A stretch of DNA of 64,000 bases from a virus (IMGVR_UViG_3300031088_000793); one strand, 5' to 3'; counted from the first letter of the stretch, positions 1,488 to 59,836 are shown. Notes: generated by a model not told the origin, from the letters alone. Program-made: numbers and translations.

Positions 1488-1534
1488 GGGGCAATGCTAT
1501 CATCTTCGAATCGCTACCGCAACTGCCCTCAGGA

Positions 1535-1993
1535 CTAGGGGAGGAGCTTCGGCGCTCCTGAGCTGAAGGAAAAGCTCCAGCCACAGACTCGCTTTCCCAG
1601 CGGACCGAGGTAGAAGTGGGTGGTGAGATCGAAGCTCATGAAGTCATAGGGGCTCAGACCGATGCGCTTCAGATGGCGGCGAGCGTGGGCCATTGCCTCA
1701 TCGGGATCAGAGGCTGAGACGGGGAGCACAGTGGGGAAGCTCAGGTAGCCGAAGGGTTCTTCCTGGCCCCGCATGGCCACGGCAACGATCCGCGCCGCAC
1801 TCCTAGCGCTGTCCGCATCCTGAGAGTCGATGGCTCTGCCCTGGTCAACTGAAACTCCACCCAGAGCCTTGCTCTCTGCGGCCGCAGCATGCTCCTCCAC
1901 GGCCTCGGTGGGGTCGTAGTAGACTACCTCCTGGCCATCCTCGAGCTCTACTGGTGAGCGGCCAGTGAAGCCGTTCTCAGCTGAGGTTCCCAT
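1535..1993 (-). CDS. hypothetical protein (152 aa)
   Basis: Minus-strand ORF packed against its neighbours and overlapping the upstream gene by 17 nt. Confidence 0.5.
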   Translation of the reverse strand: MGTSAENGFTGRSPVELEDGQEVVYYDPTEAVEEHAAAAESKALGGVSVDQGRAIDSQDADSARSAARIVAVAMRGQEEPFGYLSFPTVLPVSASDPDEAMAHARRHLKRIGLSPYDFMSFDLTTHFYLGPLGKRVCGWSFSFSSGAPKLLP

Positions 1994-2627
1994 GGAGCTC
2001 TCCTCTCTGATCCGCTACTGCCGGTGCAGTCGGCTCACTGGGCTGCGCTGCAGCTACCAGGGACGGGAGCCTCGGGAAGGGCTTCAGCGCAGCCTCGACG
2101 GCGCTGCGAACCTCCGCGAGCCTTCCGGTGGGAAGATCGATGATCGGAGCTCTTCCGTAGGTCTCTTCGAGGTTGGCGAGGGTCTTGGCCACGACGCTCA
2201 GGGCTACGAAGCGCTTGATCCTTCGAGTCTCCATGAGCTTCGAGATGAGGAAGATCAGGATGAGCGCTCCATAGTAGACGGAGACGGGGAGGCCGAGGTC
2301 GAGCTCAGGATAGAGGATCCGGTAGCCGAAGAGTCCGAGGATGAAGCTACTGGAGAGGATCGAGAGGAAGGACCAGAGCGCTGGAGTGGAGAAGAGCCCT
2401 GTGCGCCTCTGCTCAAAGCTGTAGCTCACGGCCTCTACGCCGGGAGCATCCGTGCCGTGGATTCGCTCTCGGACGGTGGTCCGGGATAGCCTACCCTCGA
2501 AGTCGGAGCCCTCGAAGCTTCCGAGCTCTGTCTCCCGGAGCACGGCTGAATTCACCGTGACCTGAACGCCGTACTTAGTGCCGCTGGGCTGAGCCGGCTC
2601 TGCGGCCTCAGTCTGCTCTGTGCTCAC
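1977..2627 (-). CDS. hypothetical membrane protein (216 aa)
   Basis: Hydrophobic segments (LWSFLSILSSSFILGLFGY, VYYGALILIFLISKL) consistent with TM helices. Confidence 0.55.
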   Translation of the reverse strand: MSTEQTEAAEPAQPSGTKYGVQVTVNSAVLRETELGSFEGSDFEGRLSRTTVRERIHGTDAPGVEAVSYSFEQRRTGLFSTPALWSFLSILSSSFILGLFGYRILYPELDLGLPVSVYYGALILIFLISKLMETRRIKRFVALSVVAKTLANLEETYGRAPIIDLPTGRLAEVRSAVEAALKPFPRLPSLVAAAQPSEPTAPAVADQRGELHGNLS

Positions 2628-2714
2628 TTGCTATCTCCTGCTTCGGGTGCCAGCCCTGGGGCTAGTGCTGTGGAGCTATGCTAACCCATTGCCGACGCCG
2701 GAGGCGAATCGACA

Positions 2715-3299
2715 CTATTCAGCGTCTGCCTCGGACTCAGCTGGGATCGAAGGGCGGCTCTCCATGAGTCCTCCGAGGAGCTTCTCACCGTCGGCGCCGT
2801 AGGCCGTCCAGCCATCGTTGCCGAAGCCCATCTTGCTCGCGTAGAAGAGCGGAGAGAGCTCATCTGAGTCGCAGTCTGTGGCCCCGAGCGTTCGGGCATC
2901 GCTGAGACCTTCGATGGCCAGACTTCCGTCCTCGAGGACGATGTACTTGCTCGAAGCCTCGAAGCAATCATCCACCAGCGATACGGATCCGCTGTGGTGG
3001 AAGGTCATGGTGGGATCTCCGGGGAGGTCGCTGTTAGAGACCTCCATCTCAAAGTCCACGCCCCGGGCCTCATCTTCCTGAGCCTGCTGCCAGCTGTTGG
3101 CCAGAGCCCTCTCCCGGAGCTCCCGATCTCGTTCCCCGGAGAAGCTCAAATGACCTAGAGCCCAGAGGGCCCCGGCGACGAGGAGAATCGCTGCGCTGGC
3201 GATGAGTAGAGCCTTGAGCGTGGGTCGCCTCCGCAGCGCGGGGCCCTCCTCTTCCGGGGAAAGGAGCTCGTCAAGCTCACTGTCTTTCTGCTCATCCAT
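2715..3299 (-). CDS. hypothetical membrane-anchored protein (194 aa)
   Basis: Acidic N-terminus followed by a single TM segment (LLIASAAILLVAGALWALG). Overlaps the next gene by 8 nt. Confidence 0.55.
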   Translation of the reverse strand: MDEQKDSELDELLSPEEEGPALRRRPTLKALLIASAAILLVAGALWALGHLSFSGERDRELRERALANSWQQAQEDEARGVDFEMEVSNSDLPGDPTMTFHHSGSVSLVDDCFEASSKYIVLEDGSLAIEGLSDARTLGATDCDSDELSPLFYASKMGFGNDGWTAYGADGEKLLGGLMESRPSIPAESEADAE

Positions 3300-4014
3300 G
3301 GTTGCTCCTCTTGATGCAGGATTGCTCCAGCAAATCTCTTCGACTATCGTAGGAGTCGCCGTTTAGGCAGCCTCGTTCCAGAAGCTCACGCTCAATGCCC
3401 AGGATGTCCGCTCTGACTTCAGCCGCTCTTCGATCCAGGCGAATTGCTCTGCGCTTTAGCTTGCGCTCCTTTCTGTCATTTGTTGCCAGTTCAGCTCGAA
3501 GCTTGACTTGCTTCAACTGGAGGCGCGCATCTGCATCTATGAGTGCTCTCTGCTCGGTGCTGGGCTGGGGAAGGAAACTGAATGTGATGTGGCGTCTTGT
3601 TCCGCGCTTCCGGTCAACGGCTATAAGGCCGTAGGATACCGGATAGTAGTTCGTGGAAATCAGCGGGTGGTATCTCAGAAAGCCACCGTAGGTCAGGATC
3701 AGAGCCACACTCAGTGGCAGTCCCACCGAGAATCCTCCCAGTACTTCTCCTGACAACAGGGCGGTTCCGGGAACTGCTGCCAGCCAGGCTCCTCCCACTG
3801 AGGAAAGCCCCACATTGAGTGCTGTGGCTAGCCGAAGCTTGGATCGCTGCGCCGGAGAGAACTCTGCGGAAACGGCTACTGGCTCTGGAACCGATTCTGT
3901 GACGGCGGTTTCCTCCAGGGCTACCCTATCTACAGACTGACCGACTTCGGAAGACTCCGAGGAGGCCGGCGCTGGAGGTAGCTCAGAGCCGGTCCCCTCC
4001 TCGAAGATCTTCAC
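3292..4014 (-). CDS. hypothetical membrane protein (240 aa)
   Basis: Two hydrophobic segments in the middle and a charged coiled C-terminus. Confidence 0.55.
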   Translation of the reverse strand: MKIFEEGTGSELPPAPASSESSEVGQSVDRVALEETAVTESVPEPVAVSAEFSPAQRSKLRLATALNVGLSSVGGAWLAAVPGTALLSGEVLGGFSVGLPLSVALILTYGGFLRYHPLISTNYYPVSYGLIAVDRKRGTRRHITFSFLPQPSTEQRALIDADARLQLKQVKLRAELATNDRKERKLKRRAIRLDRRAAEVRADILGIERELLERGCLNGDSYDSRRDLLEQSCIKRSNHG

Positions 4015-4019
4015 AGTGT

Positions 4020-4808
4020 TCAGTTCTCCTGAGTGGTATCGCCGTGGCCCTGGGGAAGCTGGTCCGTGAGGTATCCAGCGTCCCGCAGAGCATCCACGAG
4101 CTCAGTTGAGGAGGCTCCGCCGTCGAGCTGCCTGTCCACGAGGATGTAGAGCTCTCGCTGACGCTCCTGAAGCCGCTGCTCTTCGAGCTCTCGGGCTCGG
4201 GCCGCTAGCTCTCCGGCTAGAGCCATGAGCTCGAAGAGAGGGCTACTTTCCCAGTCCTCGTCCTCCTCGGGGAAGGGCTCGATCTCGAAGCGGGGGTCAG
4301 GGTTCTCTACCCCATCTGCTCGAAGGATCTCAACAGCTGCTGCTCGAAGCTCCCGGCTGCGCTCCTCGTCATCGTAGAAGAGACCGTCACCCCGGACACC
4401 GGTGCTGTAGACCGGCTCGGAGGAACTGTGGTCCGGGTAGTGGGCTCGGAAGTAGCCGTGGCGAAGTCTGAGGTAGCCGATCTGTCGGCCGTCTCGGAAG
4501 AAATCGTACTGCTCGGGTGCGGCAGCACAGGTGCGCTTCAGCTCCAGCTCCACAGGATTGAGCTCAGCTGGCTCCTCGGGAAGAATTCCCGCGTCCTTGA
4601 GGTAGCCGTAGAGCGCTACGGCCTCGTCGTGGCCTGCTAGGGGATTGCCAACGCTGTCCACGACGCCGTAGTCCCTGAGCCCTCGGACGAGCGCTGTGAG
4701 CGCCCTGTGCTCCAGGGTGGGCTCGAGCCCGGGCAGTGTGGGCTGTTCCATCTTGATTCCTTCGTTCTGTGAGCCCATCTTATCGAGCGAAGTCGACATT
4801 GAGCTCAT
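4020..4808 (-). CDS. hypothetical protein (262 aa)
   Basis: Minus-strand ORF in the dense array. Confidence 0.55.
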   Translation of the reverse strand: MSSMSTSLDKMGSQNEGIKMEQPTLPGLEPTLEHRALTALVRGLRDYGVVDSVGNPLAGHDEAVALYGYLKDAGILPEEPAELNPVELELKRTCAAAPEQYDFFRDGRQIGYLRLRHGYFRAHYPDHSSSEPVYSTGVRGDGLFYDDEERSRELRAAAVEILRADGVENPDPRFEIEPFPEEDEDWESSPLFELMALAGELAARARELEEQRLQERQRELYILVDRQLDGGASSTELVDALRDAGYLTDQLPQGHGDTTQEN

Positions 4809-5340: not shown

Positions 5341-5427
5341 AGCGCAATGCTATACCATTGACTCTCCGCCCGCAACCGAAGGGCCAAGCGGGTTGCGGCG
5401 GGCCAGAGGTCCGTTGTATAGTCCACC

Positions 5428-5848
5428 CATGCGCCGAATCACCACCACAGACCAGGAACTGCTCCTGGAGGTCTCCCCCTGCACCGAGGAAGAAGTCGAC
5501 AGCTTCACTGCGGGCGACTGCTGGAAGCTTGCCCACGAGCTCCACAGCCAGGGGGCCGGTGAGCTCACGGGGGTCGTGGACGCCCGGGATCCATCCTTCT
5601 GGATCCACATGGTGGTGGAGCTCCCCGACGGCAACTTCCTCGATGTCTACGGCATTCAGAGCCGGGAGCAGCTCATGGATCGCTGGGCTCCCTACTTCGC
5701 TGGGAGCAAACCCGCCACGGCTCGCTACGATCTCTCGCAGCCCAGGCTCTGGGAGGAGCTCACGGGAGACCAGGACTTCGATCTCGCTGACCCCGAAGAG
5801 GTCGCCGAGGTTGCTCAGCGGCTCATCGAGTGGTCCGAGGACCTCTAG
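5428..5848 (+). CDS. hypothetical protein (~140 aa), the only plus-strand gene in the window
   Basis: Internal ATG (MRRITTTDQELL) of track ORF 5288..5848. Preceded by TTGCGG-N18-TATAGT-N6-ATG, so leaderless, in a divergent promoter pair with the 4780..5340 gene. Confidence 0.55.
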
Positions 5849-7605: not shown

Positions 7606-7926
7606 TTAGCTGATGTTGCGGCCCTTGTCCTTGCGAATCTTGTGCTCCACCGCGTCGAGAAGATCGAACTCGCGCTTCTCCGAGATGCCGAGGAGGCAGA
7701 AGAGCACATCCGCCGACTCTTCCTTCAGATGGTTGAGATTCTTCGCAGAAGGATCAGCTTCGTAGTCCGCCAGGGCCTCCATGAGCTCATCGAACTCCTC
7801 CTGCAGCTTGCTGGTCTTGGAGTAGCGAGTCCAGCGAGTGCCGCGGAGCTTAGAGTAGAGGTGGAGGTAGCCGTTGAGCCGAGGCTTAGCCTTACCGGAG
7901 CCGGAGATACCGTCCTTGGCTGCCAT
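7606..7926 (-). CDS. MazG-like nucleotide pyrophosphohydrolase (106 aa)
   Basis: Helical EExxE-type motifs (LQEEFDELMEAL, EESADVLFCLLGI) and a size typical of the small MazG/HisE-like all-alpha NTP pyrophosphatases common in actinophages. Confidence 0.65.
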   Translation of the reverse strand: MAAKDGISGSGKAKPRLNGYLHLYSKLRGTRWTRYSKTSKLQEEFDELMEALADYEADPSAKNLNHLKEESADVLFCLLGISEKREFDLLDAVEHKIRKDKGRNIS

Positions 7927-8001
7927 GGGAAACTCCTAGAGCTGAATCAGTGGATGTGGTTGGAGCAACACTAACCCCACGGGCTCATGCTGTCAACACT
8001 C

Positions 8002-9671: not shown

Positions 9672-10130
9672 TCAGACGAAGTGGTAGAAGTTTCCGTCAT
9701 CGGGGTCGACACTCCAGCCGAGCTCCTCGAGCCGCTGAATCTGCTCCTCGGAGAAGTACTCAGGATCGATGCTGCTGTAGATCACATCGTGCTCAGCGGA
9801 GAGCCACTGGCCGCCACCGTGCTCCCGGAGCACCGTCCGGAGGATGGCGAGGGCCTCGATGAGACGGTCGTATTCCCGAGACTCGTTGGAGGACGGAATC
9901 TCGTCCACACCTTCTCGGTAGATCTCCCAGCCGTTGGAGTTCAGAGTCATCTGATCGATGTTGCCGGGGAACTCCCCGGAGAGAACCTCGATGCTGGCGA
10001 TGTGAACAGCTGAAGGGGCACCTGCCATGCCTTCGAAGTCGTTGAGGAGGTAGCCTCGGAGCCTGATGGCGTCCTTGATAGCGATGATGTTGGAGCCCTG
10101 GGGTGCAAGGCCGAAGAACTGTGCGCTCAT
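9672..10130 (-). CDS. hypothetical protein (152 aa)
   Basis: Minus-strand ORF in the dense array. Confidence 0.5.
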   Translation of the reverse strand: MSAQFFGLAPQGSNIIAIKDAIRLRGYLLNDFEGMAGAPSAVHIASIEVLSGEFPGNIDQMTLNSNGWEIYREGVDEIPSSNESREYDRLIEALAILRTVLREHGGGQWLSAEHDVIYSSIDPEYFSEEQIQRLEELGWSVDPDDGNFYHFV

Positions 10131-10975: not shown

Positions 10976-11004
10976 AGAGTACACGGCGACTCGAATCAGC
11001 GCAA
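10976..11004 (-). promoter_or_regulatory. conserved promoter (-35 TTGCGC, N17, -10 TACTCT)
   Basis: Member of the recurring TTGCGN-N17-TANNNT family, followed by a ~38-nt leader with a Shine-Dalgarno sequence. Confidence 0.45.
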
Positions 11005-11059
11005 TGGGAAGGGCCGGAAGCAACTTTCCGCTCCCGGCCCTTCCTCTCTGAGTTCTAGC

Positions 11060-13269: not shown

Positions 13270-13298
13270 ATGCTATACGGACTGGAGCGAACTCGCAA
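13270..13298 (-). promoter_or_regulatory. conserved leaderless promoter (-35 TTGCGA, N17, -10 TAGCAT, N6, ATG)
   Basis: Plus-strand ATGCTA and TCGCAA elements at the family spacing, directly upstream of the 13263 start. Confidence 0.5.
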
Positions 13299-13330
13299 CC
13301 GGAGTATCAATCGGGCTGCGAGCTCTAATC

Positions 13331-15678: not shown

Positions 15679-16046
15679 CAGCTACCCTTCTCTTCCTTCT
15701 CAGCGTCGTGCTTGCTGCTGTCCCAGAGCTCCTGAAGGCCGATGATCTCCTCAGCTCGCTGATCCTCGGAGAGGTCGCTGTTGAGCTCGATGCCGTAGCT
15801 GTTGCCCACTCCGGGGCGAGGAGGAGGCGTGTCGTAGATCTTATCCATGGCGTTGGATTCGCCGGGAGCTCGATCCTTGGGCCTGGGGGCTCTCACGGGA
15901 GGCTCCTTGCCATCCTCGATGACTCGGAAGCTCAGGAAGCTCCGGAGTCGCTTCAGCAGTCCGACGCGCTCGGTGGGCTCTTCGCCTCGGCGCTTGAGCA
16001 TCGCGGAGCCGAAGAGCACGAGGGCTCCCATGAGGATGAGGCTCAT
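15678..16046 (-). CDS. small membrane protein (122 aa)
   Basis: N-terminal TM segment (MSLILMGALVLFGSAML) followed by a charged tail. Confidence 0.5.
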   Translation of the reverse strand: MSLILMGALVLFGSAMLKRRGEEPTERVGLLKRLRSFLSFRVIEDGKEPPVRAPRPKDRAPGESNAMDKIYDTPPPRPGVGNSYGIELNSDLSEDQRAEEIIGLQELWDSSKHDAEKEEKGS

Positions 16047-16558
16047 CGGTCCGCTCCAAGCTCTGCCGCGTCCTGGGGCGCCTCGTAGAAGGCCAGGGAG
16101 GTGTCGATGAGATCCACGGTTCGGCGGATGTAGTCAGTGCCGCCATCCACGAAGTTCTTGCCGCACTTGCACTCCTGGAAGTCGTGGCGGCTATTGCTCT
16201 GCAGCTCGTCGCCGCACTCGGGGCAGACGCCGGAGTTGCGGAGCACAGCGCTTCCCGAGCGGAGGAAGCCGTAGTCGTCGGGATCGATGACCACGGGCAC
16301 GGGGCGCTCCGAGAACTGAGGAACTCGCACGCCCTGGGTCTCGCTCACGGTCACCCCGGGAACGATCCGGACCATGGAGCCAGAGACGAAGGCCAGGGGC
16401 CAGTCCCGCATGGAGTGCTCGGTGGGCTTATGGACAGGACAGACATCGCCGAAGCACTGACTCTCTCCGTGGAAGTTCAGCACGAGCTGACCCGAGGAGA
16501 GCGTCACATCGGGCCGCTGCTTTGGAGCACCGTAGATCTTGGCTGAGTGTAGAGCCAT
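16043..16558 (-). CDS. hypothetical protein with a C-terminal zinc-ribbon (171 aa)
   Basis: CPECGDELQSNSRHDFQECKCGKNF four-Cys motif, with additional upstream Cys residues (CFGDVCPVH). Confidence 0.55.
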   Translation of the reverse strand: MALHSAKIYGAPKQRPDVTLSSGQLVLNFHGESQCFGDVCPVHKPTEHSMRDWPLAFVSGSMVRIVPGVTVSETQGVRVPQFSERPVPVVIDPDDYGFLRSGSAVLRNSGVCPECGDELQSNSRHDFQECKCGKNFVDGGTDYIRRTVDLIDTSLAFYEAPQDAAELGADR

Positions 16559-16630
16559 GGCCTACTCCCTTTCTCTGAATGTGGATAGACTGCTATCACC
16601 ACCTTACATCACTGCGGTGGAAAGCACAAC

Positions 16631-18530: not shown

Positions 18531-18559
18531 ACGGTACACCACGGAGGCGCTCACCGCAA
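18531..18559 (-). promoter_or_regulatory. conserved promoter (-35 TTGCGG, N17, -10 TACCGT)
   Basis: Family motif, followed by a ~70-nt leader with an AGGAGG Shine-Dalgarno. Confidence 0.45.
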
Positions 18560-21843: not shown

Positions 21844-21861
21844 ACTGGCAGAATTCTGAGC

Positions 21862-42617: not shown

Positions 42618-42659
42618 AGTCGGATCCTATCGCAGCTTCCGCCAGCTGTCAAAAGCTGA

Positions 42660-43382
42660 CTAGAGCCGCTCTCCCAGGATCACAGACCAGTTGAGCTCTG
42701 AGCGCTCGAAGGGGAGCTGAAGCTCCCGGTTCGAGCTTCCGATGGAGCTCACGCCCTGCTCCCAGCTGATCTTCCTTCGCTTCAGGCTGCTGGCCATGGC
42801 TGAGATGAACTCGCCCCGAGACTCAGCGTCCATGACGAGCTCCACGCTCCAGTAGCGCACGGGCATGGAGCCGAAGTGGTTCTGACCGAAGCCGTCGGGA
42901 TTGGGAAGGAGCTTCCCCATGATGCTCTCAGTCCAGAAGCGATCCTCGAGATCCTTCGCAGAGAGGAAGCCAGCCCTGTTGGCGTCCTGCTTCGAATCGA
43001 ACCACTTCCCATCGAGCTGAGCCTGAACTGCCTGAGCGTTCCGAACTGCCTGATTCGAGGGTGGTTGCCGGGTCCTCTTCTGCCTCGCTGGCTTGCCGTT
43101 GAGCTTGCTCTTGGGGTGGGTCCCTCGCTCTCGCCTCCGGACGCTCTCTGAGCTAGAGCGCACCTTGGAGCCACCCAGGGCCTTGGCTGAGATCTCAGGC
43201 TCGCCGTTGTCTCGAGCCCAGCCATTGACCTCGCTGAGGTCCCGGGCTCTTCCGAGCTCAGAGATTCCACTGTCCACTTCGGGAACAGCCTTCTTCAGCT
43301 TGCTGATCGAGCGAGAGCTCCAGCCGAGGTGAGCGAGGTCTCGCACTGAGACCCAGCCCTGATCTACCCACTTAGCAGCCAT
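42660..43382 (-). CDS. protein with an N-terminal Lsr2-like DNA-binding motif (240 aa)
   Basis: LSEVNGWARDNGEPEISAKA resembles the Lsr2 C-terminal DNA-binding helix (AIREWAR.NGH.VS.RGRIPA), followed by a basic linker. Confidence 0.45.
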   Translation of the reverse strand: MAAKWVDQGWVSVRDLAHLGWSSRSISKLKKAVPEVDSGISELGRARDLSEVNGWARDNGEPEISAKALGGSKVRSSSESVRRRERGTHPKSKLNGKPARQKRTRQPPSNQAVRNAQAVQAQLDGKWFDSKQDANRAGFLSAKDLEDRFWTESIMGKLLPNPDGFGQNHFGSMPVRYWSVELVMDAESRGEFISAMASSLKRRKISWEQGVSSIGSSNRELQLPFERSELNWSVILGERL

Positions 43383-43387
43383 GGGCT

Positions 43388-43621
43388 TTAGCGGCCTGTG
43401 GCTTCAGCATCGGGCTTTGCCCGGGCCCTCCAGAGGGTGAGGGCAGCGGAGCCGACGAAGAAGAGCGCTCCTAGGATACCCACGGAGAACACGGCCCAGA
43501 ACTTGCCGCCATCGAGCCCTGAGGCCACGAGGAGGCTGATTCCGAGGAGGCCGAGGGCAACGATCAGATCTGAGAGCAGGCTGCTGCCGATGGACTTCTT
43601 TGCTTCGCTGCTGTTTGTCAT
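43388..43621 (-). CDS. small membrane protein (77 aa)
   Basis: Two TM helices. Confidence 0.45.
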   Translation of the reverse strand: MTNSSEAKKSIGSSLLSDLIVALGLLGISLLVASGLDGGKFWAVFSVGILGALFFVGSAALTLWRARAKPDAEATGR

Positions 43622-43676
43622 GGAACTACGCTACCGAAGCGAGGCCGGAATCGCTACCGGCCCCGCAGGTCCCCCA

Positions 43677-44765
43677 TCAGTTGCTCGGAGCGAAGGGGAT
43701 CGTCTGGTGGAAGTCGCTGGGCTTGGAGTAGAGACCGTTCCAGTTCTGGCCTGTTCCGGCGTTGTAGCTCTCCTTGGTAGCGCCCTGGAGCTTACCGTTG
43801 GCGTCGTAGAGCCCGGTCACCTTTCCAGCACTGTCGAAGGTGATTCCCACGGGCCCCTGAGCCCTCTTGGCATTGGTGGGCACCAGGGTCTCGAAGTTGT
43901 TCAGGAGCTGGTAGATCAGGGTGCTTGAGCCATCTGGATAGATCTCAAGCTTGACCATGTTGTAGCCATCGACGGTTGTGGGGAAGAGCACATTGAGGAG
44001 CTTGCCGTCTGAGTAGACTCCGAGGAAGTAGGGCTTGACTAGGCTAGCTGCGGGGTTGGAGGATGAGGGGGAAGACTTCCTGTAGACTTCCTTGCCTCCA
44101 TCGCTGAAGACCTTCGAGGAGATAGCCCTGAGGTCACCCTCCTCCTCGATGTAGCGCACCTCTTCCTTGGCTGTCTTGTCCTGGATCGTGTAGAAGATGG
44201 CGTTGGCCTTGGGGATCTCCCGCAGATCCAGAGCCGAGCAGTACTCAGGGTCATCGATGAACATGAGCTTAGTGTTGCGGGTGTCATCGGGGTTGTCGAC
44301 CACATTGGGAATGTCCGCGGTCGTGCTGAGGTGGACGATTCGAGGCTTAGAGCCATCGGCTGGGAAGCCAAGTCTCATCCTGCCAGCAGATGCATCGTAG
44401 TGAGAGATCACGGCCCATCCACCGGAGTGGTACTTGATCTGATCCCACTTGCCCTGAGCTACTAGGAGCTCGTTGGCCTTGGAGAAGTCAACCATTTCCT
44501 TGGTGACCTCGAAGTTCAGCGCACCACAGCGGTAGCTAGCGAAGACTCGGGAGTCGCCCGTGTTGCCTCCACTGGGATCCGAGACGATCTTGGTCCCCAT
44601 GCCCGCGATGGCCTGCACACCGGCTGTGCTCTTGTTCTGAGCCTTGACGAAGAACCCTCCACCCGGAAGGCTAGCAGATGCTGGAAGTGCTGCGAGGGGT
44701 ACTGCGAGGATGAGGCCCAGGGCTGATACCATCAGCAGCTGCCTTCGGGATGCGGGTCTCTTCAC
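43677..44765 (-). CDS. secreted protein, paralog family D, member 2 (362 aa)
   Basis: Signal peptide ...ALPASA/SLPGGGFFVKAQNKS, the MVDFSKANE core, and the C-terminal NWNGLYSKPSDFHQTIPF block. Confidence 0.65.
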   Translation of the reverse strand: MKRPASRRQLLMVSALGLILAVPLAALPASASLPGGGFFVKAQNKSTAGVQAIAGMGTKIVSDPSGGNTGDSRVFASYRCGALNFEVTKEMVDFSKANELLVAQGKWDQIKYHSGGWAVISHYDASAGRMRLGFPADGSKPRIVHLSTTADIPNVVDNPDDTRNTKLMFIDDPEYCSALDLREIPKANAIFYTIQDKTAKEEVRYIEEEGDLRAISSKVFSDGGKEVYRKSSPSSSNPAASLVKPYFLGVYSDGKLLNVLFPTTVDGYNMVKLEIYPDGSSTLIYQLLNNFETLVPTNAKRAQGPVGITFDSAGKVTGLYDANGKLQGATKESYNAGTGQNWNGLYSKPSDFHQTIPFAPSN

Positions 44766-44930
44766 TGCTCATCTTCCTAGCTCTTAGGGTGCATTTTTCG
44801 CAGGATCGGGTGGGTCCTGTTCTACCCTGAGGCCTGTGTCAGTGTGGTGCTCAGATCCGAAGTGCCTGGGGCAAGGCGGATGGCCTGAGAGTCGGGTAGC
44901 CCTACTATCGCATAGCCCATACCCCTCGGC

Positions 44931-44974
44931 ATCGAGTGGAGCCCCGGGAATTCCGAACCGGAGCTCGATGTTCC
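44931..44974 (-). terminator. hairpin downstream of 45054..46187
   Basis: 12-bp inverted repeat GAGCCCCGGGAA/TTCCCGGGGCTC with a ~20-nt loop. Confidence 0.4.
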
Positions 44975-45053
44975 CGGGGCTCAGCGATCAGCCCAGTAGC
45001 CCTACTGAGGAGGCTTAGCCGTGAAGGATATCCGGGGGCTCTCGCCGCGCTGC

Positions 45054-46187
45054 TTAGAGGCTGGGAGGCGTCGGCACGAAGGGGAAGCTCAGGTCGAAGT
45101 CCGAAGGCTTCTGGTAGGAGCCGTCCCAGTTCATTCCGGTAGCCTCGTTGTACTCCTCGACGGTGAATGGTCCACCGCGCCAGAATACGGTGGAGCCGGG
45201 CTTGCCACCCTCGAGCCCTGTGATCTCACCCTCAGCGTTCCAGATGATGCCGGTGGGACCCTGCGTTCTGTTGGGAGCACCGATCTTCAGGGATGTGGCT
45301 GAGTTTGCCCCCAGGTAGTTGCTGTAGGAGATCGATCCCGAGCCATCGGGATTGGCTGTGACAGTGATCCTGTTGTAGCCGTCGATGGTCTCCTTGAGGA
45401 TGAGCTCTGCTCTTACCACACCGGCCTGGCTCTTTGAGAGCGAGTAGGGCTTGCTGTTGCTCTTTGCAGGGTTGTAGGAAACCGCCGATTCCTTTCGACT
45501 GATGGTGTTAGCGCCGTCTGCCTGCCGTGCTGAGCTCACGGCCACAAGTGCGCCGTCTTCCCGGAGGTAGCGACTCTCGGAGAATGCACCGTTGGAGAGC
45601 ATCCAGTAGCCGAAGCCCTTGCCCTCGGCAGCTCCGGAGCGAGCATCGAGGTAGCTGCAGTTGGCACTGTTGTCAAGCCTGAGCACAACGCCGTTGGTGG
45701 GACCGGGCTGGTCGCTAGTTGCGGGAAGTGCCATGTCTGACTTCAGGTAGACCAGCGGAGGAACTGATCCGTCCTCGGGATAGCCGGCGATCATCTTCCT
45801 CTCAGTTGCTGAGAAGTAGGCCATCGACTGCCAGCCCTCTGCGTTGGTCTGAGGCGCCTTGCCCTCGGCTGCAAGAGCCTGGTTCGCCTTGGAGAAGTCC
45901 ACCATGGCCTGAGTCACTGCGAAGCCCAGCGGGCCGCAGCTGTAGCTCGCGAGGGTAGCTGAGCTCTCGTCCCCGCCGGGATCGACCTCTCCGCCGCCCG
46001 GGGCTGAGCCGTCTGACTTCAGGCCTGCATAGGCTTCGTACTCGGGCTCTTCGATGTTCTGAGCGTGGACGAGGAAGCGGCCGTCGTCGAGGCTTGCCGA
46101 TGCGGGCAGAGCTACGAGGGGGACGAGGATGGCGGCGCCGATGGCTGAGACGATGATGCCCTGGCGCCTACGAGTTGCTCGATTCAA
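45054..46187 (-). CDS. secreted protein, paralog family D, member 3 (377 aa)
   Basis: Signal peptide, LDDGRFLVHAQNIEEPEYEAYAG, MVDFSKANQ, and the C-terminal NWDGSYQKPSDFDLSFPF block. Confidence 0.65.
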   Translation of the reverse strand: MNRATRRRQGIIVSAIGAAILVPLVALPASASLDDGRFLVHAQNIEEPEYEAYAGLKSDGSAPGGGEVDPGGDESSATLASYSCGPLGFAVTQAMVDFSKANQALAAEGKAPQTNAEGWQSMAYFSATERKMIAGYPEDGSVPPLVYLKSDMALPATSDQPGPTNGVVLRLDNSANCSYLDARSGAAEGKGFGYWMLSNGAFSESRYLREDGALVAVSSARQADGANTISRKESAVSYNPAKSNSKPYSLSKSQAGVVRAELILKETIDGYNRITVTANPDGSGSISYSNYLGANSATSLKIGAPNRTQGPTGIIWNAEGEITGLEGGKPGSTVFWRGGPFTVEEYNEATGMNWDGSYQKPSDFDLSFPFVPTPPSL

Positions 46188-46263
46188 AGCTGGTTCTCCT
46201 TGATTGCAGGTGGAGCCATATCGACAACCGTTGGAGAATTCAGTGGATCTCTCTGCGAAAAGA

Positions 46264-46300
46264 AGCGACTGTCCTCGAACCGAGGCTCGGGGACAGTCGC
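46264..46300 (-). terminator. rho-independent terminator downstream of 46322..47461
   Basis: 10-bp stem GCGACTGTCC/GGACAGTCGC followed on the minus strand by TTCTTTTCG. Confidence 0.55.
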
Positions 46301-46321
46301 TCTAGGCTAGACCGAGATCAG

Positions 46322-47461
46322 CTAACTGAGAGGGACAGCTTCGAAGGGGATTGTGAGATCGAAGTCAGTGCCCTTGAGGTAGCTTCCGTCCCAGCTCTGC
46401 CCAGTGAGCTCATTGTACTTGGCCGCTGTGAAGGCGCTGTCTCCGAAGTTCTCGTGGCTGTCGTAGGATTGAAGGTAGGTGAAGTCCCCAGAAGAGTTCC
46501 ATCTTACAGTCACAGGTCCGTTCTTTAGAGGGGCATAGGTCTCCGCCTGCTGTCCATCAGCCGTGAGCCCTCTGTGATCCAGGTATTGCACCTCTCCCGA
46601 GCCGTCGGCATTCACTCCCAGCGAGACCTTGTTGGCGCCGTCGATGGGCGTCTTGAGGTAGACCTGAATCGTGAGGCTACCGTCCAGCCCTCGGTAGATC
46701 ACAGAGGGCTTACTGTCGCTCTTAGCGTGGTCCACTAGGGACCCTGAGACGCCCCTGTCGACTGTGGTTCTACCGTCCGTCTGCTTTGCCACGGTGACTG
46801 CGCGGAGCTCGCCTTCCTCGAGGATCCAGCGCGTGTCCGCATAGTAGTCTCGCTCAGGCGCGTTGACCTGATCGTAGGAGGGATAGGCATTGTAGGACAG
46901 CCTGTCTCCGTTCTTGGGCGTTGAGCGCCTGTCGTAGATCTGACACATCTCGCCCTCCTGGTAGGCAAAGGCCTTGGTGTCAGGAGTAAGACTCAGGGGT
47001 GCTGGAACTGCCATGCTGTCGGATAGAGTGACGAGTAGGGCCTTAGCCTCGCCCTCGGGATAGCCCAGCGCGACGCTCCTCGTAGCCATGTAGAAGCTCG
47101 ACATCGACTGCCAGCCATCCGGAGAAGTTTCGGGAGTCCGAGACTCATTGGCCTTGGAGAAGTCCACCATGGCCTGAGTGATCTTGAGCTCCATGGGACC
47201 GCACTGGTAGCTTGCGAGCACACCGGAGCTGTCGGTGGGTCCGCCAGGGCTTTCTGTACCTGAGCCACCGCCTCCACTGGGATCTACTCCTTTGAGTCCA
47301 GCAGTGGCCTTGAATTTGCTGTCTTCGATGTTCTGCGCGTGGACGAAGAACCCACCCCCATCGAGGCTTGCCGATGCGGGAACAGCGATGAGTGGCACAG
47401 CTAGAGCTGCACCTAGAGTGGCGAGGAAGATCTTCCTCGCTTTGCGGGGCGTTCTGTTCAA
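46322..47461 (-). CDS. secreted protein, paralog family D, member 4 (379 aa)
   Basis: Its N-terminal 60 aa are nearly identical to member 5 (MNRTPRKARKIFLATLGAALAVPLIAVPASASLDGGGFFVHAQNIEDSKFKATAGLKG). Confidence 0.65.
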   Translation of the reverse strand: MNRTPRKARKIFLATLGAALAVPLIAVPASASLDGGGFFVHAQNIEDSKFKATAGLKGVDPSGGGGSGTESPGGPTDSSGVLASYQCGPMELKITQAMVDFSKANESRTPETSPDGWQSMSSFYMATRSVALGYPEGEAKALLVTLSDSMAVPAPLSLTPDTKAFAYQEGEMCQIYDRRSTPKNGDRLSYNAYPSYDQVNAPERDYYADTRWILEEGELRAVTVAKQTDGRTTVDRGVSGSLVDHAKSDSKPSVIYRGLDGSLTIQVYLKTPIDGANKVSLGVNADGSGEVQYLDHRGLTADGQQAETYAPLKNGPVTVRWNSSGDFTYLQSYDSHENFGDSAFTAAKYNELTGQSWDGSYLKGTDFDLTIPFEAVPLS

Positions 47462-47505
47462 GATCTTCTCTCCCTGATGAAAGCAGCACTGGTCACATCA
47501 TAGGA
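47455..47505. repeat. duplicated ~50-bp 5' region, also present at 48895-48945
   Basis: CTGTTCAAGATCTTCTCTCCCTGATGAAAGCAGCACTGGT versus CTGTCCAAGATTTTCTCTCCCTGATGAAAGCTGCACTGGT, immediately upstream of members 4 and 5. Confidence 0.6.
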
Positions 47506-47639
47506 ATTGAGCTCTCCAGCCGCGTAATCGGTGAGGTTCCGAGGCTGGAGAGATTCCGCATCTAGAATGCTGAAATGTTCCTATGTGACGGATTATCAAC
47601 ACAGCTGAAGCGCCGGAGATAGCACCGTAGACTCACTGA

Positions 47640-47680
47640 CAGGAATTGCCCCTCGGAGCTCAGCTCCGAGGGGCAATTCC
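47640..47680 (-). terminator. strong hairpin downstream of 47700..48902
   Basis: 19-bp perfect inverted repeat AGGAATTGCCCCTCGGAGC/GCTCCGAGGGGCAATTCCT with a 3-nt loop. Confidence 0.5.
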
Positions 47681-47699
47681 TGAGATCCTAGTTCAATCG

Positions 47700-48902
47700 C
47701 TAGGAAGCAGTGGGCTGGAAGGGGGGAGTGGTGTTGAAGTCGGAGAACTTGGGGTAAAAGCCATCCCAGTTCTGGCCAGTAGCTGCGTTGTACTCAGCCA
47801 CTGTCGGGTAGGAATTCTCGCCGTCAGCTGATGAGTAGAAGCGCATGTTTCCATCGCCGAGGTCTACGATCCTACCGGGGCCCTGCTTTCTGTCTGACTG
47901 CTCAGTCAGGGCATAGCCATTGGAATCGGATCCGTTGTACTTCAGATACATGATCTCGACACTGTTGATGCGGATGTAGTCGTAGCCATCTCGGATCGAG
48001 TCATAGCGAATAGTAAGGTTATTATCTCCAGTAAGGGAGTAGAAGGGCAGATTCGAAGCCGTTGCGGGAGGGCTAAAGTCCAGCATGCTCTTCTGGCGGG
48101 CCACCGAGATCCTGCCGCCGGTCTGTGTGGCAACATTGACCAGGTTCAGCTGACCTTCCTCCATCACATAGCGACTTTCGGAAATGCTCGGAGCTCCCGA
48201 TCCAGAGGGGGCAAAGTTATATGCAACCATCGCACCGGCCTTAGGTGCTCCTCTGAGATCGTAGTACATATACATCCCGCCGCTATCGAGGACCTGGAGC
48301 TTTACGCCCGAAGAGGGAGCTAGAGAGACGGGCAGAACACCGACTCCAGCATTGAGGTTCACGACCTCAGGTCGAGATCCATCCTCGGGGAAGCCTAGCC
48401 GCATTGTGTTTGAAGCTGCATCGTAGGAAGAAATGGACTGCCAGCCATCGGGGTGAGTTCGAGGAGCCTTGCCTTCAGCCACTAGGGCCTCATTGGCGTT
48501 GGAGAAGTCGACCATTGCCTGTGTGACCCTGAAGCTCACAGGGCCCTTCTGGTAGTCGACCAGGAGGCTAGAGCTGTCCTCTGGACTACCGGGAACTGCT
48601 CCATCTCCACCCGTGCCGCCGCCGGGCGTAGTGCCACCGGAACCATCTCCAGGTGTAGTGCCACCGCCGCCAGTGCCATCTCCGGGAGTTGTGCCTCCAC
48701 CGGAGCCGCCACCGCCGCCGGGGTTGGTGCCTTTGAGGCCGGCCGTAGCCTTGAACTTGCTCTCCTCGATGTTCTGCGCGTGGACGAAGAATCCACCTCC
48801 ATCGAGGCTTGCCGATGCGGGAACGGCGATGAGGGGGACGGCTAGAGCTGCCCCGATGGTGGCGAGGATAATCCTCTTCTGTCTACGGGGTGTCCTGTCC
48901 AA
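47700..48902 (-). CDS. secreted protein, paralog family D, member 5 (400 aa), with a Gly/Thr/Pro-rich low-complexity linker
   Basis: Signal peptide and the shared N- and C-terminal modules. Linker GGGGSGGGTTPGDGTGGGGTTPGDGSGGTTPGGGTGGDG. Confidence 0.65.
   Translation of the reverse strand: MDRTPRRQKRIILATIGAALAVPLIAVPASASLDGGGFFVHAQNIEESKFKATAGLKGTNPGGGGGSGGGTTPGDGTGGGGTTPGDGSGGTTPGGGTGGDGAVPGSPEDSSSLLVDYQKGPVSFRVTQAMVDFSNANEALVAEGKAPRTHPDGWQSISSYDAASNTMRLGFPEDGSRPEVVNLNAGVGVLPVSLAPSSGVKLQVLDSGGMYMYYDLRGAPKAGAMVAYNFAPSGSGAPSISESRYVMEEGQLNLVNVATQTGGRISVARQKSMLDFSPPATASNLPFYSLTGDNNLTIRYDSIRDGYDYIRINSVEIMYLKYNGSDSNGYALTEQSDRKQGPGRIVDLGDGNMRFYSSADGENSYPTVAEYNAATGQNWDGFYPKFSDFNTTPPFQPTAS
48600..48725. 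repeat. coding tandem repeat (Gly-rich linker of member 5)
   Basis: Imperfect ~30-nt units encoding TTPGDG(S/T)GGG. Confidence 0.5.
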
Positions 48903-49212
48903 GATTTTCTCTCCCTGATGAAAGCTGCACTGGTTTGCATCGTAGGCTCAAGGTCTATTGCTACGCTCTCCCGGCACCGGAGCTGGTTGGCACTCCGGAT
49001 TCGAGCGTCGCTGCACTTGGAGCACAGAGAGTCGCCTACCCAATCCACTATCAACAACGGTTGCAATTCAAGTTAGCCTCCGCTGAAAAACGAAGAGGCC
49101 AGTCAGGGAATCTGGACCTATTCACCAGGACCTGTGTGAATGGTACAAGAAAGTAGCTGATCTGTTGGCGCTATTGCACAATGGCTCCTCAGCGCCATTC
49201 CCTCGGCCAAAG

Positions 49213-49251
49213 AGAAAGGCCACCTTCCTTCCCAGGTGGGGAGGCGGTGGC
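49213..49251 (-). terminator. rho-independent terminator downstream of the small ORF 49280..49449
   Basis: GGCCACC...GGTGGCC stem with inner pairing, followed on the minus strand by TTTCTCTTTGG. Confidence 0.45.
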
Positions 49252-49279
49252 CTGAGCGGATGGAGCTAGGAGCGGATGC

Positions 49280-49449
49280 TCACCAGCCCGAGCGGACGGC
49301 GGCGCGCTTCGCGGTCGAGCGAGTGCGCTGACGGGGCGGGCGGTTGTCGTGGGTGCCCCAGGCACCGGAGAACGCACGCTCCGTGGCGGCCTTGGCAGCG
49401 ATGGGGTTGGCGGTGGCGCGGAACTTGGGGTTCTTCTTGGCAGCCATGG
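49280..49449 (-). CDS. possible small basic protein (55 aa)
   Basis: MAAKKNPKFRATANPIAAKAATERAF... with an AAAGGAC Shine-Dalgarno, a promoter-like TTGTGC-N16-TATTGT upstream, and a terminator downstream. Confidence 0.35.
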
Positions 49450-49584
49450 GAAAGTCCTTTGTGCGGGGGATGGTGAGTCCCGGGGGTGTGGTGTGATTCC
49501 TACAATACACGATCTATCGTAGCGCACAACCCCCGGAACCGAAACTCTTCCAGCGACTTTAGCGCGGCCTGAGATCCATCCGAA

Positions 49585-50769
49585 TCAGTTGCAGAGTCTG
49601 AGCACTCCATTGGCCATGGGTGCTACCATGCAGCTACCGTCGGTAGCGGACTTGGAGAGCAGACCCGGAGCCTTCTCTCCAGCGACCTCGGACCAGCTCA
49701 CGCCACCGTCGCTAGAGCCATAGAGAGCGACCTTGCCCACTGACCAGTCAATGCTCGAAGCGATGAGCCGATCTCCCGTAGATCCGAGAAGCGAGGAGTA
49801 GGCGGGAAGTCCAGTAGCACTCAGAGGACTCCAGCTGCCTCCACCTGTTGAGGCAAAGTAGCTCGGCTCAGTGCCGTCGGTAGCTCCGAGGGCCGTGGAG
49901 TTGCGGATCACAGTGCCACCCTGCTCGATAGCGCCGTTGGCCATCCTGCCGATGGGGCTCTTGGCCAGGGATGTTCCGGGGATCTGCTGAGCAGAGAGCT
50001 TCCAGTTGGCCCCATCGGAGGACTCGATCAGAGCGCTGCTGATGTTGCCATCCGCTGTGCCGACGAGCCCCGTAGCTGCTACGAGCTTACCGCCGAAGGA
50101 GTATACCTCTACGATGGAGGTTGAACTGTAGGCTGCGACGACTTCAGGAGGAAGCGCTGCGTTGCTCCAGCTGACTCCATCCCGGGAGTAGATCAGAGGC
50201 GCTACGCCGCTCTCCCCAGAGCCGCCCGCTACAAAGGCCCCATTGCCGTAGGCCACATAGGTGAAGCTGCTAAGATTCGAGCTCTGCTCAGTCCAGTTAG
50301 CACCGTCGGTGGAGCTCATGATTCTGCCATCATTGGAGACGGCAACATAGCGGCCACCGCCGTAGGCCACGCTGAGCCAGCCACCTTCGGGCGCATCGTC
50401 GCTCGCGGTCCAAGTCTTACCGTCCGCGGAGCTCATGGTTCTGTGAGCGCCGCCCGTCGAGACCGCCACATACTTGCCGGCTCCGTAGGTCGCGCCTGTC
50501 CAGTTACCGTCGGGAACCGTATAGAGCTCAGCCTGACCTGGCTCAGCGGGGCTGGGAGTCTCTTCGCCACCTCCGGGTGGCAGTGAGACCCCTCTCATGC
50601 CAGCAGTTGCTTCGTACTGCTTTTCCTCGATGTTCTGAGCGTGGACAAGGAAGCCGCCTCCATCCAGTGCGGCTGAGGCTCCAGGGACCAGAGCAAAGCT
50701 GCCTACCGCCGCGATGGCTAGCGCTCCGAGTAGTCGATTTCTGCTCTGTAGTGGCTTCTTGCTCATCAT
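49585..50769 (-). CDS. secreted BNR/Asp-box repeat protein (sialidase-like beta-propeller), family D-related N-terminus
   Basis: Signal peptide and ALDGGGFLVHAQNIEEKQYEATAG as in family D, followed by at least six Asp-box repeats (SSADGKTWT, STDGANWT, SRDGVSWS, SSDGANWK, STGGGSWS, SSDGGVSWS). Confidence 0.7.
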   Translation of the reverse strand: MMSKKPLQSRNRLLGALAIAAVGSFALVPGASAALDGGGFLVHAQNIEEKQYEATAGMRGVSLPPGGGEETPSPAEPGQAELYTVPDGNWTGATYGAGKYVAVSTGGAHRTMSSADGKTWTASDDAPEGGWLSVAYGGGRYVAVSNDGRIMSSTDGANWTEQSSNLSSFTYVAYGNGAFVAGGSGESGVAPLIYSRDGVSWSNAALPPEVVAAYSSTSIVEVYSFGGKLVAATGLVGTADGNISSALIESSDGANWKLSAQQIPGTSLAKSPIGRMANGAIEQGGTVIRNSTALGATDGTEPSYFASTGGGSWSPLSATGLPAYSSLLGSTGDRLIASSIDWSVGKVALYGSSDGGVSWSEVAGEKAPGLLSKSATDGSCMVAPMANGVLRLCN

Positions 50770-56254: not shown

Positions 56255-56283
56255 ACCATACACGAAGGAGGGCCGAGCCGCAA
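56255..56283 (-). promoter_or_regulatory. conserved promoter (-35 TTGCGG, N17, -10 TATGGT)
   Basis: The -35 lies within the hairpin GGGCCGAGCCG...CGGCTCGGCCC. Confidence 0.45.
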
Positions 56284-56322
56284 CTGCTGCGCGGCTCGGC
56301 CCTCCTTCGGAAGTGCGAGGGC

Positions 56323-57707: not shown

Positions 57708-57736
57708 AACCTATCATGGAAAAGCCCTCACCGCAA
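57708..57736 (-). promoter_or_regulatory. conserved promoter (-35 TTGCGG, N17, -10 TAGGTT)
   Basis: Family motif with a ~40-nt leader. Confidence 0.45.
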
Positions 57737-58955: not shown

Positions 58956-58984
58956 ATGCTACAACGGACTCAGTAAAAGCGCAA
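58956..58984 (-). promoter_or_regulatory. conserved leaderless promoter (-35 TTGCGC, N17, -10 TAGCAT, N6, ATG)
   Basis: Plus-strand ATGCTA at 58956-61 and GCGCAA at 58979-84. Confidence 0.5.
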
Positions 58985-59053
58985 CCGCTGACATCCCTGA
59001 GCCAAGGATGCCAGCGGCCGTGAGGAGCTGGAAGCTACTGAGTGCCTCGAAGG

Positions 59054-59287
59054 CTACGCGGGAAGGGCGAAGCCGAGCTTACCCAGAGCGATCTCCACCA
59101 GGGACTCGATGATGTCGTCATCCTCCCGGGCGAGGCTGAAGTCCTCGAGGCTCATGGTGCCCTCGCTCCAGCCCTCGTAGACCCGGTCGCAGGAGTAGAT
59201 CTCTTGGCCGAGGTAGCTGGCGAAGGCCTCGCGGAGCTCGTCGGCCTTGGCCTGGTCGATGACCTTGGGGGATGTGGTGGAGTCCAT
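59054..59287 (-). CDS. hypothetical acidic protein (77 aa)
   Basis: Minus-strand ORF. Confidence 0.45.
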   Translation of the reverse strand: MDSTTSPKVIDQAKADELREAFASYLGQEIYSCDRVYEGWSEGTMSLEDFSLAREDDDIIESLVEIALGKLGFALPA

Positions 59288-59291
59288 TGCT

Positions 59292-59801
59292 CTAGTCCTT
59301 CTCGGTGGTGGTAGAGTTGATCAGTGTCTGCATGCCCTTGAGCACGCCGTGGACATCACCCTCTGCGCCGAAGGCCAGAGTGATGTGGAGATCCTTCGCG
59401 GGGAGTCCCAGGGACTTCCTCCAGTCAGCCACGGCCTGCGAGCGGCACACGGCGAACCAGGTCGAGCGGCCCTCGCTCGAAGCGGTGCCGACGCCGTAGA
59501 CAGCGAAGCGGATCGGGCTCTTGGGAAGCTCCAGCTTGCTGCCAGCCTGCTTGAGCTCCCGGGTGACCTTGCGAAACTCACGAGGCTCGATGATGGTCAT
59601 GTGGTAGCGGTCTGCGCCGTCTCGGAGATCCCGGTGACCCTTGAGCTCCTCGAAGTCATCTCCGAGGATGGCCTGGAGCTCGATCTCCAGGGGCTGGAGC
59701 GCAGCGGCATCCACGGAGAGAGCAGCGTAGGAGCCCTTGAGCACCTTGGCTGCACCTGAGACCGTCAGGGGCTGCTCAGCGGTGGGGATTCGGATGTCCA
59801 T
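59292..59801 (-). CDS. 2H phosphoesterase superfamily protein (LigT/cyclic phosphodiesterase-like; start probably MDIRIP)
   Basis: Two H-x-T-x motifs (HMTI and HITL) about 75 residues apart. Promoter 59808-59836 places the leaderless start at the second ATG. Confidence 0.5.
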   Translation of the reverse strand: MDIRIPTAEQPLTVSGAAKVLKGSYAALSVDAAALQPLEIELQAILGDDFEELKGHRDLRDGADRYHMTIIEPREFRKVTRELKQAGSKLELPKSPIRFAVYGVGTASSEGRSTWFAVCRSQAVADWRKSLGLPAKDLHITLAFGAEGDVHGVLKGMQTLINSTTTEKD

Positions 59802-59807
59802 GGATCC

Positions 59808-59836
59808 ACCATACGCCATGGGGAGCTACTGCGCAA
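59808..59836 (-). promoter_or_regulatory. conserved leaderless promoter (-35 TTGCGC, N17, -10 TATGGT, N6, ATG)
   Basis: Family motif. Confidence 0.45.

Follow-up and report, generated by a model that had tools for sequence, protein, structure and literature searches.

Predicted SigA-type promoters with frequent leaderless starts in a one-directional gene array of a virus-like metagenomic element

Promoters read by the RNA polymerase of mycobacteria have been dissected by mutagenesis, which identified TTGCGA as the optimal -35 hexamer in combination with TANNNT and a spacer of 17-18 nt (Agarwal and Tyagi, 2006; PMC1616969). In Mycobacterium tuberculosis, TANNNT lies 7-12 nt upstream of 73% of the primary start sites, with C at -1 and a purine at +1, no -35 consensus emerges, and 22-26% of the genes are leaderless (Cortes et al., 2013; PMC3898074). 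In Cluster O mycobacteriophages, 8-9 SigA-like promoters have been predicted in ~70 kb, situated in AT-rich gaps (Cresawn et al., 2015; PMC4351075). Here we describe a family of promoter-like sequences in a 64,000-nt stretch (the window) of the viral metagenomic sequence IMGVR_UViG_3300031088_000793, which is the reverse complement of positions 242,506-306,505 of the 673,309-bp metagenomic contig k141_645502 (ENA ERZ27247443). Together with its flanks, the window forms an extended 83-kb stretch, so that 82.8 kb of the contig (~12%) are covered. The window has 62% GC, is 85% coding and holds ~94 genes, which all except one lie on the minus strand; features mentioned below are on the minus strand unless stated otherwise.

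The exact sequence TTGCGG-N17-TANNNT occurs 10 times in the window, always on the minus strand, versus 0.14 copies expected. The pattern TTGCG-N18-TANNNT, which corresponds to a spacer of 17 nt between the hexamers, is found 18 times versus 0.29 expected, and none of 100 shuffles reaches 18. All 18 of these TTGCGN sites lie on the gene strand and between genes, and all have the 17-nt spacer; a gene-strand TTGCG motif at any other spacer from 14 to 20 nt was not encountered in the window. One plus-strand copy (5393-5422) has an 18-nt spacer and faces the sole plus-strand gene. In phage WXIN of Mycobacterium, 100 kb of which served to control for composition, the TTGCG-N18-TANNNT pattern is not found at all and, given this zero count and the shuffles, chance or base composition was rejected as the source of the motif.

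In a logo of the 18 sites, information is confined to the two hexamer blocks, the spacer being unconserved in sequence and fixed in length. G precedes TTGCG in 16 of the 18 sites, T is present at -14 in 14 and a purine at -13 in 17, and the sequence before the start is rich in C. At most sites, spacers and flanks are unrelated to one another. The two blocks are like the mycobacterial SigA optimum (PMC1616969), consisting of TTGCGG, TTGCGC or TTGCGA and TANNNT with a spacer in the range of 17-18 nt, the host here being placed only within the Actinomycetota. They depart from that optimum in three respects: the -35 box mostly ends in G or C, the spacer is invariably 17 nt compared with a measured best of 18 nt, and a TG or TA directly next to the -10 box takes the place of the TGn extended -10. 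In contrast to M. tuberculosis, where no -35 consensus exists, the -35 box is strongly conserved here.

A generic pattern, TTGNNN-N16-18-TANNNT, has 29 minus-strand matches in the window and all 29 are intergenic. Besides the 18 TTGCGN sites they comprise five with TTGACA and one or two each with TTGTGC, TTGCCA, TTGCAC, TTGACC, and TTGTCA. Within intergenic DNA, 25 copies compare with 1.85 expected from dinucleotide shuffles, and 3 are found on the opposite strand. Inside genes, the window scan finds none in the sense direction versus 2.5 expected (P = 0.07) and 3 in the antisense direction versus 8.5 (P = 0.02); this depletion is only marginal and no claim is based on it.

These counts confirm, in stronger form, an initial annotation of the same DNA, which had proposed one repeated two-block promoter with 17-nt spacing, TTGCGG-N17-TANNNT, for about 16 genes. 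The motif is real, all 15 sites that had been listed are present at the coordinates given, and the promoter reading is supported by strand, position, a fixed distance to the ATG, conservation at seven orthologous genes and the match to the mycobacterial optimum. The definition was too narrow: the site at 26960 has TTGACA, those at 10976, 21816, 58956, and 59808 have TTGCGC and that at 13270 has TTGCGA, while the sites at 344, 30436, 35617, and 40772 and the plus-strand copy at 5393-5422 had been missed. TTGCGN is better described as the main variant of a continuum that includes TTGACA, TTGTGC, TTGCCA, and TTGCAC and amounts to ~29-30 sites.

The distance between the -10 box and the start codon falls into two classes. 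TANNNT-N6-ATG occurs 20 times in the window versus 5.96 expected, and 14 of these copies are promoter-associated and predicted to be leaderless, where at least eight had been annotated initially. In all 14 the start codon is ATG and the preceding 20 nt consist of promoter sequence with no Shine-Dalgarno motif. Among 20 promoters checked, the nominal 5' untranslated region (5'UTR) is bimodal, being 0 nt in 11 and 34-72 nt in nine, with none between. The nine leadered promoters each have GGAG, AGGA or GAGG 6-12 nt before the ATG, in agreement with the annotated Shine-Dalgarno leaders. For 12 genes, the gene calls of the public assembly begin exactly where a leaderless ATG is predicted. These sites are like actinobacterial leaderless transcripts (PMC3898074) in that TANNNT spans -12 to -7, the start is an A preceded by C at -1, and a Shine-Dalgarno sequence is absent, the starts being predicted here and mapped there. 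The predicted leaderless proportion is higher, with ~45% of the promoters found here versus 22-26% of genes in M. tuberculosis.

TTGCGN promoters with predicted leaderless starts begin with TTGCGG-N17-TAGGAT at 344-372 (ATG 337, a 394-amino-acid gene running off the window) and TTGCGG-N17-TAGCAT at 1494-1522 (ATG 1487, 364 amino acids). An identical TTGCGG-N17-TAGCAT at 5347-5375 (ATG 5340, 186 amino acids) forms a divergent pair with the plus-strand TTGCGG-N18-TATAGT at 5393-5422 (ATG 5429, 139 amino acids). Further copies are TTGCGA-N17-TAGCAT at 13270-13298 (ATG 13263, SprT-like, 246 amino acids), TTGCGG-N17-TAGCAT at 29325-29353 (ATG 29318) and TTGCGG-N17-TACGAT at 29969-29997 (ATG 29962, 87 amino acids), followed by TTGCGC-N17-TAGAAT at 35617-35645 (ATG 35610), TTGCGC-N17-TAGCAT at 58956-58984 (ATG 58949, 234 amino acids) and TTGCGC-N17-TATGGT at 59808-59836 (ATG 59801, a 2H-SAK phosphoesterase of 169 amino acids). 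The same start geometry is associated with TTGCCA-N17-TAATTT at 22921-22949 (ATG 22914, GNAT-like, 129 amino acids), TTGACA-N17-TAGCAT at 26960-26988 (ATG 26953, 146 amino acids) and TTGACA-N17-TAGGAT at 42624-42652 (ATG 42617, 165 amino acids), and with a -10 box TAGCGT at 43628-43633, which has a poor -35 and lies 6 nt before ATG 43621 (77 amino acids).

The leadered TTGCGN promoters are TTGCGC-N17-TACTCT at 10976-11004 (38-nt leader with GGAG, ATG 10931), TTGCGG-N17-TACCGT at 18531-18559 (72 nt with AGGAGG, ATG 18452), TTGCGC-N17-TATGGT at 21816-21844 (46 nt, ATG 21763), TTGCGC-N17-TACTGT at 30436-30464 (62 nt, ATG 30367), TTGCGG-N17-TAGCGT at 31385-31413 (37 nt, ATG 31341), TTGCGG-N17-TAGAAT at 34981-35009 (66 nt, ATG 34908), TTGCGA-N17-TAGACT at 40772-40800 (56 nt, ATG 40709), TTGCGG-N17-TATGGT at 56255-56283 (44 nt, ATG 56204) and TTGCGG-N17-TAGGTT at 57708-57736 (34 nt, ATG 57667). 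Leadered sites of the other variants are TTGACA-N17-TAGTGT at 7968-7996, with a MazG-like gene (7606-7926) downstream, and TTGACA-N18-TATGAT at 39982-40011, ahead of the gene at 38794-39936, as well as two promoter-like sequences, TTGTGC-N17-TAAGGT at 16601-16629 (gene 16043-16558) and TTGACC-N18-TAATGT at 32535-32564 (Band-7 gene, 31451-32470). Four gene starts had been re-assigned initially on the basis of these promoters; the assembly calls agree for 29962, 59801, and 10931, and the fourth, 21763, is plausible and is preferred because the called start, 21820, lies within the -10 hexamer.

Two of the leaderless starts open ORFs (open reading frames) of just 35 and 11 codons (29211-29318 and 35575-35610) directly ahead of Shine-Dalgarno-led genes; the former abuts the gene at 28765-29208 and the latter is followed by that at 35232-35537. 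These ORFs could be leader peptides or small proteins. The divergent pair of leaderless promoters stands back to back in an 88-bp gap (5341-5428), a layout that resembles a genetic switch. The product of the plus-strand gene (5429-5848) has no family match, and a comparable lone opposite-strand gene is located 5.4 kb into locus L004 and also in the relatives.

Comparison with seven related metagenomic loci (loci are cited here by L numbers) comprised seven ortholog groups and 28 promoter instances, at proteins that are 36-91% identical. All 28 instances keep TTGxxx, a 16-18-nt spacing and TAnnnT, while spacer and upstream sequence have diverged, which amounts to a phylogenetic footprint of a promoter. 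Leaderless promoters remain leaderless in the orthologs (N6-7) and leadered ones remain leadered (39-50 nt). The promoter at 58956 is kept in L008, L013, L014, and L010 and that at 59808 in L008, L013, and L014, whereas the orthologs of the TTGCGG promoter at 57708 have TTGACA in L008 and L014. Such -35 swaps at orthologous promoters involve TTGCGG/TTGACA, TTGCGG/TTGCAA, TTGCGC/TTGTGC, and TTGTGC/TTGCGA. More generally, the relatives (53-60% GC) carry TTGCGN or TTGACA, N16-18 and TANNNT, often with N6-ATG, on whichever strand their genes lie. As the -35 variants interchange at the same promoter, this argues for one polymerase reading all of them.

Many of the promoters are fused to GC-rich hairpins. 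A stable hairpin ending on or just before the -35 box (z < -2) is present at eight of 19 TTGCGN sites in the 83-kb stretch versus three of 60 control positions, with free energies of -22 to -35 kcal/mol. Hairpins overlap the -35 box at 13289-13325, 29343-29373, 29987-30016, 31400-31436, and 56270-56302, abut it at 58982-59020, and lie upstream of it at 11006-11046 (directly) and at 40815-40842. The stem sequences differ between sites and only the pairing is kept. The hairpin at 29987-30016 is a perfect palindrome with the arms GAGCCCCGCAA..TTGCGGGGCTC, as had been annotated, and the compensatory change reported for the hairpins at 29343-29373 and 31400-31436, a T-A versus a G-C pair, is present as well, these hairpins belonging to paralogous cassettes that are one compensated base pair apart. 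The genes at 28006-28398, 28765-29208, and 30472-31341 have a common C-terminal motif, PGxxI(F/Y)TPxE(V/I)A. Because three ORFs (starts at 26953, 29318, and 29962) open with MDA(T/N) and these PGxxI(F/Y)TPxE(V/I)A genes lie nearby, the sequences suggest that whole terminator-promoter-gene cassettes have been duplicated.

The majority of the proteins match no family, and those that can be recognised, with 2H-SAK and HAD_SAK RNA-repair domains, MazG, RNase T, NAPRTase, isochorismatase, Band-7, acyl-CoA desaturase, cation-efflux and AAA ATPase proteins among them, form a set typical for large actinophages. A 720-amino-acid protein shares 47% identity with a protein of the Omegavirus WXIN, a Mycobacterium phage, and 28% with one of Rhodococcus phage Weasels2, the best matches of the desaturase are from Arthrobacter, Curtobacterium, and Streptomyces plasmids, and the Band-7 protein matches those of Rhodococcus, Gordonia, and Mycobacterium phages; on account of these similarities, the host of the element most likely belongs to the Actinomycetota. 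Megablast searches with 8 kb against phages and with 25 kb against plasmids gave zero matches. Searches of Pfam, NCBIfam, and PADLOC with the leaderless-gene products and large ORFs gave almost no matches and no transcription factor, and within the window ARAGORN found no tRNA and Rfam, at the gathering score, no family.

With a probability of roughly 80%, we consider the sites to be promoters of a group-1 (SigA/HrdB-type) RNA polymerase holoenzyme, which most likely belongs to an actinobacterial host. Such a holoenzyme would recognise a -35 box (G)TTGCG(G/C/A), TTGACA or a near variant together with TANNNT at a distance of 17 nt (16-18 nt in relatives), and initiation would be set ~7 nt past the -10 box. 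The initiating position would coincide with the A of the ATG at about half of the promoters, so that the transcript would have no 5'UTR and would be translated without a Shine-Dalgarno sequence, a frequent situation in Actinomycetota; the remaining promoters would give rise to leaders of 34-72 nt carrying one. A promoter every 2-3 kb would split the one-directional array into units of one to five genes and, in ~40% of cases, the GC-rich hairpin, most likely a terminator of the upstream unit that works without a U-tract, would make up a compact terminator-promoter cassette. Cluster O phages are similar in having multiple strongly predicted SigA-like promoters, divergent pairs and, in some cases, a +1 that is the first base of the start codon (PMC4351075). 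In contrast to Cluster O, the window holds ~30 promoters in 64 kb, many of them joined to GC-rich hairpins; its genome is not related to theirs, and the present element is far larger.

The early promoters of phage T4 offer a more distant likeness, as there are dozens of them, they are close to the consensus of the host sigma factor and conserved beyond the host norm, and they drive short units of small genes of unknown function. T4 differs from the element in the window by the phylum of its host, by its promoter consensus and by the absence of leaderless starts.

Several observations speak against this SigA-type interpretation. In the 9.6 kb past the low-coordinate end of the window there is no TTGCGN site and only one degenerate leaderless site, TTGTGT-N17-TAGGAT. 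A scan of 21-41 kb set to the E. coli consensus flags only two TTGACA sites. Compared with the TGn of a classical extended -10, the T at -14 and the purine at -13 are shifted by one position towards the -10 box, and TGAG or TGAT directly follows the -35 box in seven of the 18 sites, which could point to an extra factor. Both the TG or TA abutting the -10 box and the TGAG or TGAT recur in the orthologous promoters of relatives. As to the hairpins, no U-tract follows the -35-associated stems, their tails being TTCTGCTCC, TCCCTTTGGG and similar, and a scan for canonical terminators yields 7 versus 10 expected, hence no enrichment. Classical U-tract terminators were dropped as an explanation on these grounds, and the hairpins are probably U-tract-less terminators or insulators of the upstream unit. 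Finally, a sigma factor or RNA polymerase of the element's own may be encoded elsewhere on the contig, 83 of its 673 kb being covered.

This last point leads to the alternative that survives best, although we regard it as unlikely: the TTGCGN-N17 class might be read by an element-encoded sigma factor, or by an alternative or group-2 sigma factor of the host, and constitute a temporal class apart from the TTGACA sites. Large phages frequently have transcription factors of their own, and just 12% of the contig is covered. The -35 region is unusually uniform, with G before TTGCG in 16 of 18 sites, an invariable 17-nt spacer and TGAK thereafter in 7 of 18. M. tuberculosis chromosomal promoters are without a -35 consensus (PMC3898074). 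However, TTGCGA is the measured optimum of the housekeeping mycobacterial holoenzyme (PMC1616969), TTGCGG alternates with TTGACA, and TTGCGC with TTGTGC, between orthologs whose -10 box and geometry stay unchanged, and TTGACA and TTGCGN sites have the -10 type and the leaderless spacing in common. Moreover, the precomputed Pfam hits that are listed for genes called in the 83 kb include no sigma-factor domain.

Short, oriented intergenic repeats next to gene starts are also known from mycobacteriophages, as the stoperators of Cluster A and the start-associated sequences of Cluster K. Those are contiguous 13-bp repressor or translation signals, whereas the motif in the window consists of two blocks separated by an unconserved spacer. 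That the repeats would be binding sites of a regulator, stoperator-like or palindromic operators, and not promoters, is in our judgement very improbable. It would fit with sites that are oriented, intergenic and present in many copies, and with -35 boxes that lie in perfect palindromes such as GAGCCCCGCAA-N8-TTGCGGGGCTC. Nevertheless, conservation is restricted to two short blocks at a sigma-70-type spacing without a contiguous conserved sequence of at least 12 bp, no palindrome is shared between sites, and operators would leave the fixed N6-7 distance to the ATG, which is kept in orthologs, unexplained.

Still less credit is given to the idea that the sites resemble one another as remnants of intergenic cassettes that were duplicated, or of a small mobile repeat, without current function: although some downstream genes are paralogous, MDA(T/N) opens three leaderless ORFs and the hairpins at 29343 and 31400 resemble paralogous copies, spacers and flanks are unrelated at most sites and the blocks persist at orthologous positions of genes whose proteins are only 36-68% identical, where neutral relics would have decayed.

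Upstream of the gene for the 720-amino-acid protein (61054-63216), two promoters of the TTGACA and TTGCAC variants are associated with a structured RNA. A motif of ~68 nt, GTCAGGCCCCTTGGGGTGGCTACTTT...CGCCGTCTCG.CTTTCCTGAC, is present there in two tandem copies (63432-63498 and 63239-63302), each beginning just past its own promoter. Copy 1 follows TTGCAC-N18-TAGAGT (63503-63532), is succeeded by a strong hairpin with a U-tract and looks like a free-standing small RNA; copy 2 follows TTGACA-N18-TAGGGT (63307-63336), a promoter kept in relatives, and forms the structured 5'UTR of the 720-amino-acid gene. The motif also occurs at L008, L012, L013, L014, L009, L010, L003, and L002 (4360-4740). 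In an alignment of 15 copies from eight loci, two helices with 14 predicted pairs are formed in 100% of cells and nine pairs are changed on both sides, a number that none of 500 shuffles reaches and that compares with 0-3 in slid controls. A covariance model also detects the motif in phage WXIN, whose sequence did not enter the model; there, 4-5 tandem copies precede the homologous gene. No Rfam family matches the motif, a permissive scan of 63150-63900 gave chance-level hits only, and its core has no match in IMG/VR as an exact DNA pattern. The motif might regulate in cis, with the small RNA as a decoy. Between its copies in L008 (~9750-9850), L013 (~9760-9850), and L014 (~4620-4800), there are two to four palindromes ATCAACCC(A/T)GGAGGGTTGAT that look like operator sites and are absent in the window.

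The 720-amino-acid gene itself is conserved from Cluster J-like mycobacteriophages to giant contigs. Its product is a member of PHROG 33734, of unknown function, and matches the RING-domain family MXAN_6230/SCO0854 (NCBIfam NF041916) only below threshold, with E = 5e-40 along 370 residues. Its metagenomic homologs number more than 200, many of them on contigs of 0.19-0.83 Mb (193-828 kb, including 698, 765, and 828 kb), and no relative was found among the viral contigs of IMG/VR; the exact DNA pattern of a leaderless promoter has no match in IMG/VR either. For comparison, the largest phage genome known is 735 kb (2026 review). The readable 83 kb are phage-like, with nearly all genes in one direction, yet have no structural genes, and the element may be a megaphage, a giant plasmid or something else. 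A search of the literature on TTGCGG phage promoters and actinobacterial megaphages found no description of it.

Two other features of the window deserve mention. In the gap at 38366-38793, four stem-loops (38509-38720) are spaced ~50 nt apart and have a common 15-nt loop, CGGATGTGGTGTTCA, on stems that differ in sequence; they could serve as arrayed binding sites for a protein or form an RNA with several hairpins. Six consecutive paralogous genes (40858-50769) encode secreted proteins of ~350-400 amino acids with a common N-terminal motif, ASLDGGGFFVHAQNIE, and are separated by gaps of 130-680 nt.

The mechanism proposed here, host SigA promoters and leaderless mRNAs, is established biology, of which the present set is a large and unusually uniform example; the finding is useful rather than surprising and its novelty is modest, the covarying RNA motif and the clade with contigs up to 828 kb being more novel than the promoters. 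A wider interpretation, which we offer tentatively and consider doubtful as a whole, would see in these promoters the means by which an undescribed clade of phage-like elements, very large and probably actinobacterial, is transcribed. Such elements would depend on host SigA promoters, near-optimal and numbering in the hundreds, that are set out as insulated terminator-promoter cassettes, with about half of the units translated leaderless, and, unlike other giant phages, they would possess no RNA polymerase of their own. For the element at hand, the promoters provide a ready map of predicted starts and transcription units where nearly every gene has no known function, and several gene starts are corrected. 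The ~30 natural near-optimal actinobacterial promoters, leadered or leaderless, are candidates for testing as expression parts. The motif also points to an actinobacterial host for a metagenomic element without cultured relative, and the fact that orthologous promoters exchange TTGCGN for TTGACA provides natural evidence for one holoenzyme reading both.

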